A stretch of DNA of 64,000 nt from Nitrosopumilaceae archaeon (lineage in GTDB: Archaea; Thermoproteota; Nitrososphaeria; Nitrososphaerales; Nitrosopumilaceae): contig CBDBMG010000003.1 in assembly GCA_965207375.1 (NCBI GenBank), positions 288,001 through 352,000 on the forward strand, written 5' to 3'. How positions within the stretch are numbered: position 1 is the stretch's first letter; every line of letters begins with the position of its first letter. The notes below the pieces were generated by a model. That model did no database searches. It worked only from the letters and a program-made list of their open reading frames with translations, and had not been told where the DNA came from. The translations under genes were made by a program, and so were the position numbers. Positions 6,207 to 27,838 of the stretch are shown in pieces.

Positions 6207-9183
6207 ATGTCTGAGTCATCTTTTGATCATACTTGGTGTATTAGTGTTCTGAGGAGGATTGTTAGTGATCTTGCTGTTTATTCAGATGGAAGAACAATGT
6301 TTAGGAATGCATTAGATAGCTATATTTTATGCATTGAGGGTGTGTATCGCGAGTTTGTAATTGCAGATACCCTTTATGGTCTTAATAACCATGAACAGGC
6401 AGTAGTTAGTTTGCTTAAATATGCACATGAAACATTAATGTATATGTATGATCATCCAATATCAGAAGACGAACTGCACAGTTGTCCAGTAGTGCTAGGC
6501 ACAAATGGCCGGCCTAGATTTGACATTCCATTTGAACAATTGGATTGTTTATTACAAAATCATTTTACTGTTCCTCAAATTGCTGACCTACTTAGTGTAT
6601 CACAACAAACCATCTTTAGACGAATGTCAGAATATGGTTTATCTGTCAGTTCTCAATATGCAAATTTGACAGATGATGAGTTGGATTGGCTTGTTATAAA
6701 CATACAACAAGAATTTCCAATGTGTGGGAATCAACAGATGCAAGGCCATCTATTGTCACAAGAGTTCCGAGTACAGCAAAGTAGGATCAGAGAATCTCAA
6801 AGAATAACTTGTCCTGAAGGCACCATGATGCATCGCTTAAGATGTTTAGAAAGACGGGAGTACAGAGTAGCTGGACCTCGTTCTCTTTATCATATTGACG
6901 GCAATCACAAATTAATCAGGTAGACAATATGTATTTTTATGCATGGTAACTTATAGCTACTTAGCTAGGTAAGTATATTGAATAATCATGATTAGCTACA
7001 CACATTCCAAATGAATGGTATCATTTGGTGTAGCTACGTATATAGTAACTACGTATATGTAACTATCACAGATCATTTTCTGATTCATTTGGCAGAGCAA
7101 ATGTCTGATTTGGTAGGACAAATCTTCTGCATGTAGTTACATTCCAATGGGGTAACCAAATGCAATGATAGTCAGGAATAATTTTACTATAAATGACCAA
7201 CAAACTTCAAAAATTAGTAGATAATTATGTAGCTAACACTGTGGAGGAAACTAGTGCTACAAATGTGATGTTGCATAGTTGGAATAGAAAATTTAGTTAT
7301 TTAGCTATGCACACTGAAACTGAAAGTGTGCTGCAACTAGGGCTGTGCGATAATGGAAAAGTTATAATATTATCATATCTCAATAAGTCAACATGAAGAA
7401 TGTAGCTATAAACTATCAGTCAAAATGTATCCCACAAGTTAAAGTCTGTACCTATCAGGTAGCTAATATAACTGGGTTTACTTACTTTCTATAAAAGTGG
7501 GATAGTGCAGATTAAGTAGTACCGCTATTGCATAAGGTATGGCTTCCTGGCCATTATTTAGTTACAAAAATAATAGCAGTAGCTAAACACACTATTGATG
7601 TGTAATGTAGCCATAAATACTTTTGATATCGATATCATTGTGTTATTGTTATTATTGTGATAGCTACAACTCGAGCTCATGCATACATAGCTATATCAGG
7701 CAAAGCACTCTTGCCTGTATGTGTTGCAACTATTACATGTAGCTATATACCTATAGAGTATATAATTATCTAGCAATGGTGACCTAACCAAGTGCACTTA
7801 TTTCGGATCAATCACTAATATTATGTAATATAGAAACCTATAGCTGCTTATCTAATAAGGTTGTGGAAATTATCTTAAGTTATAGCTACGTATATGTGGC
7901 TATGTTGTAGTGTACCTATAGCTATACCTCCATCATGTGTTAGCCTCAAAGCTATACGTATAGTAAAATGTGCTATTCACTGAATAAATTGTATATAGCT
8001 ACTTGAAAAGCCATATAGATTTAGGTCATGCAGTTTCCTATAGTAAAATAGGTGTTAACCTGGACTTGATGTCCAGTCAAATTTAATTTGTGCATGTTTA
8101 TATTAATCATGCACTTTGGCTAACTAACTGCAAGATGCAATATCTTATGCTGGTTAGTTATGTTTATATGTTCACATATGGATATATGTATGTTTATATA
8201 GGTGGAGACTTGTTATCCACGGGTGTATCGATGGATACAGCAGAAGGATTATATACTTGCATTGCAGCGATAATAACAGAGCAGCCACAGTCCTGCAATT
8301 ATTTGTTGAACAGTTGGGTGTAACAGGACTCCCAAGCAGAGTACGAGGAGACAGAGGGGGAGAAAATGTGCAGGTTGCTTCCTTTATGATCCAGCATCCA
8401 GACAGAGGTCCTGATCGTGGCAGTTTTATAACAGGACGTAGTGTTCATAACCAAAGAATTGAACGTTTATGGCGTGATGTTTATTCACAGTGTACAATAC
8501 TATATTATCAAATTTTTTATTACATGGAAGATTTAGGCTTACTTAATATAGAAAATGAAATACATTTGTTTAGTCTACATTATATTTTTATGCCAAGAAT
8601 AAACATGTCACTAACAAAATTTAAAAATGGTTGGAATAATCATCCATTATCTTCAGCAAGATTTTTAACACCAATACAACTGTGGATTAGTGGACTGCAT
8701 CATAATACTGATGCTGAAATAAATGAGGTGCTTAACAATTTTTTAGAAACCAAATTAAAGTAGCCATGCAGTTAGCTATACATTAGAAAATAAGTATGCG
8801 TTTACATATTACAATTTGCATCAAATGTATAGCTATGTAAAAATAGGATAATGGAATGTATAGCTATGCATGTATACATTTTTCATTGGTATGTTCTATT
8901 TACACAATGCTTATAATGTGTGTATATGCTATGATATTAACGGCATAATTTTTATTAGGAAGATTTGCAGTTATACGGAATTGACTGGGATGGCCCATTA
9001 TCAACAGAAGAAGATATGACACAAGAACAAGTGAATGTACCATTAGTAGAATCTCCATTAACTGATGATGATTTTTTGGAACTTAGCCAAACCATATCAC
9101 CACTGGCTCCATCAGTCAATTATGGAATAGACTTGTACCTAACCACCCTTCATTTTATATCACTGCATACAATACAAACATAG
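6207..9183 (+). CDS. Spliced DDE integrase-core transposase (IS3/IS3EU-like), 487 aa; exons 6207-6919, 8202-8727, 8959-9183
   Basis: GT-AG introns join the exons in frame (713+526+225=1464 nt). N-terminal GRPR + HTH ([20 protein letters not shown]). Splicing rebuilds [24 protein letters not shown], followed by [12 protein letters not shown] and [14 protein letters not shown] (D-D-E triad) and C-terminal YGIDWDGP. No stops or frameshifts. Confidence 0.92.
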
Positions 9184-9644
9184 TTATGTAGCTAACTATA
9201 GGTTTTAAATTTGTATGTATAGCTATAGCTACGTACGTAGTTGGAGTGGGTTTATAAATCTCATTGTGTAGCTATAGCTATAGCTCTCCTGTGAGTATAT
9301 AGCCATATTGCTGAGTATATAGCCATATTGCTATACACTGCATATAATATAGATAAATGCAGCTATGCACATCACATTATACCTATTGTTATTCCTATAT
9401 GCTCATGTATACATAGCTATAGTTATTATAGTGATTCATATGGTAACAATACAGCTACGTAGTCATTCATACACACGTAATAGTTACGTATATACAGGTT
9501 GTTTGCCTCATCATGATATATATGCACCTGAACTGAGGGATGAGAGTGTATATATATCATAATATTATATGTAATCATGCATGTGATAGAATATCCTCAA
9601 TGGTAGTTCATGGCCTCACTCTGTTTATGTAGACACTTGTATTG

Positions 9645-26800: not shown

Positions 26801-27838
26801 TCTATACTAACAACAAAATATTTAAGTTTTAAAAAGTGGGCGTGCTGTGAGCGAAGCGTGTCGTGAGTTACTAACAAGGTCATTTGTCTCGCAGTAAAAA
26901 CCATTTAACCAGCTGACAAGATGAAGCATTTAAGCGGTTTTAAAAGTGGCCGTGCCGTGTGTATTGCGAAGCTTATAAAAGAAGACTGGCCTATAGTGTT
27001 ATGTAGTACAGTAATAATTTTGGCTTAAAACAACTTTACACAAGCAAGTAGCTAGCTACTGGAGTATAAAGTGATTTAAACTGAAGAGTTAAATTTGTAT
27101 GCGTTCCTGTGTTAGAGTCTTAGCTCACATGACTCATCTATTATATCATTATATTGGTATCCAACCACGAGGGTTTTCGTTATTATTTGTAACTTCGTTA
27201 TTATTTAAAACTTTAATTTTTACAATAATTATTTGAAACCCACAATTGATCTAAATAAGTTGCAGTACAATCAAAATCAACAAGGTTTAGTATATAAATA
27301 GCAGACAAGCAAGTGTGTTCTGTAAGTCTGTAACAGTACAGTTTGTGTGTTGTGGTGCTGTGTCTGATTGGTGAGATGTGGACCATTTTAATGACCTGCT
27401 AGCGGGTCTCTTAGTGGTTTTTAAGAACCTCATTATCTCAAAGGTCAAAGCATATTATGCATACCATTTTCTAATAGTTGTTAACATGTTGCTATGTACA
27501 TGATTTTACTTGCGTAGGAATCATCATTAAAGATGGTGGGAATCAACCCAATCCAGATGGTAATTAAGAGCCTTTCCAATTAATAGGTTGTTTAATTTTT
27601 TAATTACAGAACATATTATTACGCTTGGGACCCTCGTCACATTCTTTACAGGATCAGAATCTTTCCCCCCCTTGGATATGAAAATTTAACCATTAGCTTT
27701 AACAACACTGACCCCTTTCCAACAGCATCTACATGTGCAATGGAACTAACTCTGCCTACACAGTATCAAACCTACACAGAGTTTAAAAGCAAGATGAACA
27801 CAGCTCTCCTTTGTTACGGAGGATTTGGATACAAATAA
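14861..27838 (+). CDS. HECT E3 ubiquitin ligase (G2E3-like) with UBZ-like C2HC finger and UIM; exons 14861-15157, 21092-21535, 22173-22264, 22902-23163, 25045-25163, 25214-25358, 25413-25547, 25612-25788, 26039-26333, 26394-26498, 27518-27559, 27610-27838; 1-nt frameshift in last exon
   Basis: All junctions are GT-AG with compatible phases. HECT motifs FEFAGENGIDAGGLTREFF, MLQFKEGLRTLGV, FFTGSESFPP, then in the shifted frame LGY...FPTASTCAMELTLP...YGGFG. Also CMNC...HVLSC finger and DDPVLQLALQLSLQQQ UIM. Total 2342 nt (+1 = 780 aa). Exon 1 linkage is the least certain part. Confidence 0.85.
15876..16500 (+). mobile_element. Full-length HINE-like copy
   Basis: 5' TTTTTAAACCAGG; 3' sub-TIR CCTGGTTTTTA, GATG-GTAAAA-CATC hairpin and AACTTGTT end. 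Confidence 0.8.
18568..19219. mobile_element. MITE, TGTGAC family, within (TA)n
   Basis: TIR TGTGACTGGCTCTGGGAAAA / TTTTCCCAGAGCCAGTCACA; same internal layout (C-rich tract, AAAAAATCGTCTGAAAAG) as 2879-3507. Confidence 0.85.
19955..20311. mobile_element. hAT MITE, 8-bp TSD GTTATTGT
   Basis: TAGTGCTGAAA...TTTCAGCACTA; identical 8-bp flanks; internal ATATTCG repeats. Confidence 0.85.
22492..22820. mobile_element. MITE with TGT...ACA-like ends (possibly Ginger-type)
   Basis: CTGTAACAAAAAAATCAATCCC...GGGATTGATTTTAGTGTGACAG, internal GGTCCCC/GCCAAAA repeats; no clear TSD. Confidence 0.6.
23320..23741. mobile_element. Diverged MITE related to the TGTGAC family
   Basis: TGTGTTGGATTTATGAAAACC...GGTTTCTGCAAATCCACACA. 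Confidence 0.5.
24181..24785. mobile_element. TA-flanked MITE (CGGTACAGCTC family)
   Basis: TA|CGGTACTGCTCAAAGGCAATGTCGCACTCG...CGAGTGCGACGTTACCTTAGAGCTGTACCG|TA; same termini as 51844-52515. Confidence 0.75.

Follow-up and report, generated by a model that had tools for sequence, protein, structure and literature searches.

IS3EU/GingerRoot elements are DNA transposons of aquatic animals with a DDE transposase of the IS3/integrase kind that lacks an HHCC finger and has a helix-turn-helix (HTH)-like region ahead of its core (PMC6839031, 2019; PMC10045372). Their termini read TA..TA, carry terminal inverted repeats (TIRs) and are flanked by 6-bp target-site duplications (TSDs) (Kojima and Bao, 2023, PMC10045372; PMC12730594). 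A locus that shares these characteristics lies in a 64,000-nt stretch of DNA, referred to below as the window (positions 288,001 to 352,000 of contig CBDBMG010000003.1, here C4, in assembly GCA_965207375.1, here G000, which comprises 4.3 Mb in four contigs). Window positions 2788-33270 very probably represent one old, repeat-bloated copy of a two-gene IS3EU/GingerRoot DNA transposon from a sponge-like host, in which the transposase gene is accompanied by a gene for a predicted HECT-type E3 ubiquitin ligase. Only the transposase is described in the accessible text of PMC6839031 and PMC10045372, whereas here a HECT E3 is the regular second gene; the terms ubiquitin, HECT, ORF2 and accessory do not occur in that portion of PMC6839031.

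Fungal IS3EU families provide the closest precedent for additional genes, as they carry genes for a TET/JBP dioxygenase and an alpha-kinase (Kojima, 2025, PMC12730594). According to the available part of that report, these elements have TAYGG..CCRTA ends and 6-bp TSDs, and, as in the case described here, their host-like accessory genes hold a fixed order and orientation relative to the transposase; escape from silencing is the role proposed for them. They differ in occurring in fungal hosts and in encoding a DNA-demethylation enzyme plus a kinase instead of a ubiquitin ligase. Moreover, TET/JBP moves between transposon superfamilies (PMC12730594), whereas the HECT gene co-diverges with its transposase. 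An initial annotation of the window had stated that IS3EU elements are described as two-gene elements. The accessible literature does not support this, since the structure and function of IS3EU are there called largely unexplored (PMC11934779, 2025) and the genes reported from fungal IS3EU are TET/JBP and alpha-kinase (PMC12730594). Full-text literature searches turned up no description of a HECT gene in IS3EU or any other transposon; they covered neither supplements, Repbase entries nor the Kojima 2019 review, which may mention further open reading frames (ORFs).

The transposase gene consists of three exons with canonical GT-AG introns and encodes 487 codons from ATG to TAG. Its Pfam rva_4 match (8158-8763, E 2e-71) is accompanied by a weaker rve match, and the catalytic D, D and E fall in invariant columns of the family alignment (A1), the E within NQRIERLW. 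Exon 2 is 67% identical to an Amphimedon protein, and intron 1 interrupts the same codon as an intron in the relative L007. A protein search identified 1086 relatives in aquatic animals, and the best 120 of 1086 longer relatives include no fused transposase-HECT gene model. Judged by its sequence, window 6207-9183 is an intact IS3EU/GingerRoot-type DDE transposase gene, as the initial annotation had proposed in calling it a full D-D-E transposase with an HTH; the HTH matches in exon 1 are weak.

The second gene is likewise on the + strand, 11.9 kb away, which agrees with the earlier description of two adjacent and co-oriented genes. It spans from about 21070 to 27838; its start codon, not found, lies upstream of the 21131-21529 exon. 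The exons align collinearly with LOC109580729, a HECT protein of 665 aa from Amphimedon. The Pfam HECT C-lobe model scores 33.4 bits on 27596-27838 against a cut-off of 23.9, and the PTASTC motif aligns with the catalytic Cys of the Amphimedon homologue P0272. The best sequence match to a solved structure is AREL1, at only E 6e-4. Two ubiquitin-binding modules had also been annotated. Here the HECT domain stands, while both modules stay below threshold: the candidate ubiquitin-interacting motif (UIM) scores 18.8 bits against a Pfam cut-off of 21 (E 0.0014), and the TRAFD1/XAF1 zinc finger match scores 18.2 bits against 27 (E 0.0023). The CCHC finger is kept in the copy of assembly G001, in L007 and in P0272.

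The N-terminal domain of the HECT protein is conserved, with the pattern W.H.F.CL...AGLGEK...GG[FY]ELLR...YIRPIQ, and has no Pfam match. An AlphaFold model built from 13 sequences (pLDDT 87, pTM 0.77) retrieves only ubiquitin-like beta-grasp structures as its top Foldseek matches in the PDB, namely SAP18, RA, RING1B RAWUL and the ubiquitin-like domains of USP7. The scores are modest (best E 1.7e-3, TM 0.4-0.5), and a ubiquitin-like beta-grasp fold is predicted for this domain. The second gene is therefore best described as a predicted HECT-type E3 ubiquitin ligase that would consist of a basic stretch, a beta-grasp domain, a CCHC finger, possibly a UIM, and the HECT domain. A complex prediction for the transposase and the N-terminal 181 residues of the HECT protein returned a score of 0.00, which weighs neither way on binding. 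At E <=1e-3, a profile of the N-terminal domain matches 2967 representative clusters of the protein library, mostly short gene calls. Look-alikes in the ESM Atlas, which serve as leads only, fall in cnidarian and mollusc clusters for the N-terminal domain and in mollusc and chordate clusters for the HECT part, one of the chordate clusters bearing the name 'G2/M phase-specific E3 ubiquitin-protein ligase-like'. Word-indexed protein searches were unproductive because the family is too divergent for them: the N-terminal exon gave 731 candidates, none of which scored, and the N-lobe exon gave a single 216-aa match.

Both genes are enclosed in a 30,483-bp unit (C4:290788-321270) with 23-nt TIRs that match at 21 of 23 positions and read TATG...CATA. 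The outermost bases of the unit, TATGA...TCATA, conform to the TA..TA termini of the superfamily; the relatives read TATGG. The eukaryote-like contigs of the assembly (C2, C3 and C4, together 2.14 Mb) were scanned for 23-nt TA..TA TIRs with at least 20 of 23 matches, lying 2.5-45 kb apart, whose inverted similarity ends outward. Among the 1615 pairs obtained, nine have TSDs identical at all six bases, compared with one of 1615 when shifted control flanks are used. A single tandem array on C3 accounts for five of these, which are artefacts. The remaining four all start with TATG, and two of them, the window unit and C2:89457-108171, enclose a transposase and HECT pair. The other two (C4:402532-412891 and C4:738962-746904) end in TATGG...CCATA, with TIRs of 47 and 87 nt and perfect TSDs (TATGTA and CGGAAT, respectively). 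They are probably non-autonomous IS3EU derivatives because neither contains an rva_4 or HECT match; C4:738962-746904 is packed with inverted tandem repeats.

The terminal sequence of the window unit recurs at other co-oriented pairs. At up to five mismatches, the 23-mer has only four matches in the 4.3-Mb assembly: the two window ends, C4:527757-527779 and a five-mismatch site on C3. The C4 match, identical over its first 15 nt, lies 6.7 kb beyond the HECT gene in the co-oriented pair at C4:494-521 kb, which is part of a paralogue at C4:491-528 kb, 200 kb from the window element. Among the other loci examined, the terminus matches only G001:C6:37901-37923 and L097:2216. The former (21/23) follows a HECT gene at a distance of 2.7 kb, and this gene is part of a co-oriented pair whose transposase exons are 83-92% identical in DNA to those of the window; the latter is found about 7 kb ahead of a transposase, and a HECT N-domain exon follows on the same strand. 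All of these termini point inward, and the co-oriented order, a spacing of 12-19 kb and the termini recur together at four loci in three assemblies. The window, C4:491-528 kb, G001:C6 and L097 constitute a minority lineage in layout, which probably goes back to an inversion of the HECT segment within the convergent arrangement usual in relatives. Next to its TIR the G001 copy has a different 6-mer, and a comparison of about 30 kb of the window with about 52 kb of G001 revealed no collinear right flank, only repeats. These observations fit a separate insertion in G001, not conclusively since non-coding DNA fails to align even within the element.

Relatives with clear boundaries carry the same two genes. 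In the external family formed by L065, L067, L068 and L070, copies on different contigs are 98-99% identical. The L065/L070 family ends in TATGGCGGGTGATTCG..., and its common TIR of about 200 nt, at 97%, starts with TATGGCGGG. TSDs differ between copies (GTAAGG at L065 7989-15074; GCTTCA at L070 4209-14051), and both units enclose a transposase (+) and a HECT gene (-). Within the assembly, C2:89457-108171 has a TIR matching at 117 of 120 positions and the TSD TGTTTT, and contains HECT (+) at 99615-103355 and transposase (-) at 105210-103835. The usual layout in relatives is convergent and compact, spanning about 7-10 kb.

Pfam searches of the assembly locate HECT at five places and rva_4 at six loci. 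Each of the five HECT places has an rva_4 core on its own contig at a distance of 0.5-27 kb, and five of the six rva_4 loci have a HECT gene, the exception being C3:521.5 kb. Only four of the HECT places are independent because two share one 16-kb inverted duplication. The six loci, extended by 27 kb on either side, cover about 15% of the 2.14 Mb, which puts the probability of four independent coincidences at about 5e-4. The duplication (C4:133539-149503 and C4:932212-915658; 97.6-98.6% identity), of which one copy ends 127 bp from the contig end, may be segmental or an assembly artefact. Within it, an intact transposase ORF of 415 aa is accompanied by a HECT C-lobe fragment in convergent orientation (C4:135013-135360), in which Tyr replaces the catalytic Cys.

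The same association is found outside the assembly. A set of 99 external loci (80 on metagenome contigs and 19 on genome contigs) was fetched by transposase alignment alone and searched with local HECT exons, then with segment profiles. Where at least 2 kb of downstream sequence is available (47 loci), a HECT gene lies directly downstream on the opposite strand in 30 and on the same strand in one; with flanks of 1 kb or more, convergent HECT genes number 37 of 66, and with 4 kb or more, 23 of 36. As a control, any HECT gene is found upstream in only 4 of 34 external loci. HECT-positive loci come from 13 of 20 accession prefixes, and in the 36 loci with a downstream opposite-strand C-lobe, at any flank length, the C-lobe starts 45-2119 bp past the transposase. 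In five other assemblies, 7-8 of 11 HECT matches are near rva_4, in convergent, divergent or co-oriented arrangement. In Amphimedon, the best transposase match (LOC109580730) and the full-length HECT homologue (LOC109580729) are on one 418,507-bp contig and are taken to be adjacent because their gene numbers are consecutive. The initial annotation had suggested counting how often the pair recurs in the same order; the pairing does recur, yet its order is usually convergent, as in 39 of the 47 loci with a linked HECT gene (104 loci classified). A third layout is seen in G003:C39 (L089, L090), where two transposase and HECT pairs stand head-to-head (divergent) on a 62-kb contig.

These counts bear on the possibility that the two genes are chance neighbours, that is, that an IS3EU copy landed, or repeatedly lands, near a host HECT family and that the TIR/TSD pair is coincidental. 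TIR-like pairs are indeed frequent in this repeat-rich DNA, the window genes are 12 kb apart and the unit is single copy in 4.3 Mb. However, in three other elements both genes lie between long near-perfect TIRs, each element with a TSD of its own, the HECT gene directly follows the transposase in far more external loci than it precedes it, four co-oriented pairs share the terminal 15-23-mer at their outer ends, and the two genes co-diverge. The chance-neighbour explanation is strongly disfavoured and appears highly improbable. The initial annotation had also considered that the genes might co-occur no more often than expected by chance and share no boundaries; the excess of downstream HECT genes (30/47 against 4/34 upstream) and the shared TIR/TSD units point the other way. 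The transposase-HECT pairing is old and widespread, and the HECT E3 is a long-standing accessory gene of the transposon lineage rather than a host neighbour.

A comparison of the two genes, of the kind suggested in the initial annotation, shows that they co-diverge. Across 37 non-redundant loci (486 pairs), p-distances of the transposase core and of HECT correlate (Pearson/Mantel r 0.434, Spearman 0.292), and none of 2000 Mantel permutations reached the observed value. As related copies inherit both genes by descent, this result shows stable linkage and nothing beyond. The transposases nearest to that of the window (G001 at 0.09, L006 at 0.28 and L007 at 0.31) belong to the loci that also have the nearest HECT genes (0.51-0.53), and L097 is the nearest relative of the C4 paralogue for both genes. 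Amino-acid evolution is two to three times faster in HECT than in the transposase.

Between the window and G001 copies, the ratio of nonsynonymous to synonymous divergence (dN/dS) is 0.23 for the transposase (dS 0.22, 505 codons) and 0.19 for the HECT N-domain exon (dS 0.53, 168 codons), so the transposase and the N-terminal part of HECT are under purifying selection. In the recent pair L045/L064, dN/dS is near 1, as expected after insertion; the ratio is not computable for most element pairs because synonymous sites are saturated. Purifying selection on both genes (dN/dS about 0.2), the intron position conserved with L007 and the single copy in 4.3 Mb would also suit a domesticated locus, no longer a transposon, whose two genes the sponge keeps for its own use. 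However, a transposon lineage that remained active from one insertion to the other would be expected to show such selection too, and domestication does not sit well with a broken HECT frame, with a family that is multi-copy within single assemblies and has different TSDs, or with a right TIR that is kept in G001 (21/23) while the adjoining six bases differ and no flank is collinear over about 30 kb. Domestication is accordingly considered unlikely.

The co-oriented layout permits another origin, in which the transposase derives from a HECT-less copy and the HECT gene from an inverted, transposase-less copy, the outer ends having then mobilised both together as a composite or the TSD being due to chance. 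Given the convergent arrangement of most relatives (39/47), two inverted copies could produce a co-oriented pair, and the long spacer and the mosaic HECT gene discussed below are in keeping with this. By contrast, no transposase remnant follows the HECT gene and no HECT remnant follows the transposase (profile searches between and after the two window genes found no relic of either), the interior has no TIR-like sequence at up to five mismatches, and a layout that recurs with the same order, spacing and termini at four loci in three assemblies is better explained by inheritance. A composite of two elements is thus improbable. A single element, with the two genes as its ORF1 and ORF2, was the original proposal, and it is upheld by TIRs and a TSD that enclose both genes, by the recurrence of the termini, by bounded relatives that carry both, and by co-occurrence and co-divergence.

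Several observations weigh against the two-gene transposon. The fifth terminal base is A in the window and G in relatives and in fungal IS3EU (TAYGG), and the TIRs are imperfect and short, at 23 nt compared with the 100-150 nt reported in the available description of GingerRoot. Of 142 random 10-kb windows, 58 matched the left flank set at 21/23 or better. A TIR-like match alone is weak evidence since interspersed repeats make such matches common, and the case for the boundaries therefore depends on two observations, the perfect TSD and the reappearance of the terminal sequence at other loci. The flank comparison suggested in the initial annotation yielded TIRs and TSDs but no empty site for the window insertion in five related assemblies, where the flanks matched only satellite and repeat DNA. 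At the DNA level, the window element is single copy in 4.3 Mb, and its family has one copy per assembly. The C4:491-528 kb paralogue has only a weak candidate for its left end and no matching TSD, and in L097 neither the right end nor the HECT catalytic exons are present within the 50 kb searched. Of the 47 informative external loci, 16 show no HECT gene, and among the 36 with a flank of 4 kb or more, 13 lack a convergent one.

The state of the HECT gene belongs to the same side of the balance. Its N-lobe segments are present, but the reading frame of the last exon is interrupted once, ahead of the catalytic Cys, by a break within the C7 run at 27665-27671 that may be a real frameshift or a homopolymer error. 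Of the two well-preserved spliced genes originally reported, the transposase is intact and the HECT gene, owing to this break, is not strictly well preserved. It is also a mosaic and not simply co-inherited. Compared with G001, the N-terminal part (21131-21529) is 80% identical and the catalytic exons (25413-27838) only 20-58%, from which it follows that the catalytic part was exchanged between lineages. The transposase dS is under half that of the HECT N-domain exon, and recombination or gene conversion among elements is suggested as the source of the mosaic. The window copy is judged to be old from its nested repeats, its 30-kb span compared with 7-10 kb in young relatives, its decayed short TIRs and the frame break, and it is probably no longer mobile.

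By analogy with the superfamily, the transposase would bind the TATG...CATA TIRs, move the element by cut-and-paste and leave 6-bp TSDs. With its zinc finger or UIM, the E3 could dock onto chromatin or ubiquitin marks and might ubiquitinate host proteins at the transposition site, so that repair is helped or silencing blunted. The initial annotation had guessed at comparable roles, namely that the E3 could degrade host silencing factors or regulate the transposase. That the E3 is recruited in this manner and modifies host proteins where transposition occurs is possible, if somewhat doubtful. An effect on the stability of its own transposase, which is compatible with a role toward host proteins, is about equally speculative. 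A broader proposal is put forward tentatively: animal IS3EU/GingerRoot elements may as a rule be two-gene elements, whose transposition requires, or is strongly enhanced by, a dedicated HECT E3 that has a ubiquitin-like domain of its own and works via host ubiquitin signalling at the element (counter-silencing, repair control). Orphan 'HECT domain-containing' and 'G2E3-like' models in sponges, cnidarians, molluscs and fish, which number in the thousands, might then be transposon genes.

Other eukaryotic DNA transposons also draw on the ubiquitin/SUMO system. Ginger1, Zisupton and MULE elements have Ulp1/OTU protease domains, deconjugating cysteine proteases that are often fused to the transposase, whereas the enzyme described here, a HECT E3, is predicted to be a conjugating one and has a spliced gene of its own. 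Viruses and bacteria are known to subvert their hosts with E3 ligases that they supply themselves. If animal IS3EU elements are two-gene as a rule, they would be the first known case of a transposon equipped with a conjugating ubiquitin enzyme of its own, and a regular HECT E3 partner would redefine the autonomous animal IS3EU element. A transposon that keeps a spliced gene for a predicted HECT-type E3 over deep time offers a testable link of ubiquitin signalling to transposon control and DNA repair. Many 'host' HECT ligase models of aquatic animals may be transposon genes that inflate gene-family 'expansions', as the N-terminal domain alone has 2967 representative clusters.

A connection to expansions of 'G2E3-like' genes, raised in the initial annotation, is plausible and is based on leads only. 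G2E3 and 'G2/M phase-specific E3 ubiquitin-protein ligase-like' proteins likewise have a short divergent C-terminal HECT domain. In the ESM Atlas, a G2E3 cluster (TM 0.72 by query) is among the structural neighbours of the HECT part of the Amphimedon homologue, and 38% of the members of a chordate 'G2E3-like' cluster have a UBX (beta-grasp) call; both are leads only. G2E3 differs in having PHD/RING-like fingers where the protein described here has a predicted beta-grasp domain and a CCHC finger at its N-terminus, and the G2E3 fingers (PHD_G2E3, zf-HC5HC2H) have no Pfam match on any window exon or on the full-length Amphimedon homologue.

Features of the element and of the remaining window are listed in Table 1, with copy numbers computed within the 4.3-Mb assembly. 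The two genes had been described as separated only by repeats. Four stretches of the spacer are indeed multi-copy, and the remainder is single copy. The SINE-like repeat (about 450 bp; SINE, short interspersed nuclear element) beside long (TG)n has 60-70 copies in 4.3 Mb, and copies of it are also present inside a HECT intron (26750-27250).

Table 1. Coordinates of the element, its two genes and other features of the window
Feature	Position	Strand	Remarks
Left TSD, GTTTAG	2782-2787		Identical to the 6 bases past the right end
Left TIR, TATGAAGAGTAATCACTGCCATA	2788-2810	+	21/23 against the reverse complement of 33248-33270; no further copy in 4.3 Mb except related ends
Left subterminal region	2811-6206		(TA)n run; nested repeats of multi-copy families (a ~25-copy family, present twice; a ~64-copy family); (TG)n at 5940-6160
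Transposase exon 1	6207-6919	+	ATG, HTH-bearing N-terminal region, first catalytic D in HIDGNHK; alignment-A1 profile E 1e-63; donor AG/GT at 6920
Transposase intron 1	6920-8201	+	GT-AG; splits Arg codon ahead of WRLVIHG
Transposase exon 2	8202-8727	+	rva_4 integrase-like catalytic core with second D and E; Pfam rva_4 E 2e-71
Transposase exon 3	8959-9183	+	Conserved C-terminal tail (YGIDWDGP...), stop TAG; profile E 1e-11; acceptor AG at 8957-8958
Spacer	9184-21061		Minisatellite ~9500-10500; SINE-like repeats and (TG)n 12750-14300, 15750-16750; other repeat 18500-19250; remainder single-copy
HECT N-terminal exon	21131-21529	+	Basic stretch and conserved domain; segment profile E 6e-51; 44% identical to Amphimedon P0272
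HECT CCHC zinc finger (C-x2-C-x11-H-x3-C)	22188-22256	+	Sub-threshold TRAFD1/XAF1 zinc finger match
HECT UIM-like motif (LQLALQLSL)	25093-25140	+	Pfam UIM E 0.0014, below cut-off; exon status unconfirmed in relatives
HECT N-lobe exons	25215-26497 (~25215-25395, 25416-25545, 25621-25790, 26040-26328, 26400-26497)	+	Segment profiles H1-H3, E 4e-14 to 2e-31; collinear with P0272
HECT last exon, C-lobe	27610-27838	+	FFTGSE, catalytic-Cys motif PTASTC, stop codon; frame break in C7 run
Right subterminal region	27839-33247		No recognisable gene; single copy in 4.3 Mb
Right TIR, reverse complement TATGAAGCGTTATCACTGCCATA	33248-33270	-	21/23 match at the equivalent place in G001:C6
Right TSD, GTTTAG	33271-33276		Perfect 6-bp duplication with the left
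DUF1759 ORF	41547-42227	+	Pfam DUF1759 E 2e-10; gag-like domain of BEL/Pao-type retrotransposons; retroelement fragment
Four-ORF cluster	56775-58590	-	98-162 aa each; no Pfam match; one Cys-rich stretch

The window has a G+C content of 33-43% in 2-kb bins (36.9% for contig C4 overall) and carries microsatellites and spliced genes. Contigs C2-C4 are read as sponge-like host DNA inside a prokaryote-labelled assembly because the top transposase matches are proteins of Amphimedon queenslandica and Ephydatia muelleri. Prokaryote-labelled assemblies can contain megabases of host DNA, and the window is an example. Several of them (G000 and the records of metagenome-assembled genomes behind L086-L104) contain hundreds of kb to Mb of intron-bearing sponge-like DNA, which includes HECT genes and eukaryotic transposons.

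Outside the element, the window gave only fragments resembling transposable elements. The ORF cluster on the - strand possibly represents a gene of an unclassified mobile element. Immediately to the left of the transposon, window 2036-2260 matches a tandem array with a 120-bp period (G004:C4:2265166-2266836) at about 90%. Scattered copies of this DNA are present in all five assemblies searched, and it looks like a satellite common to these host genomes.

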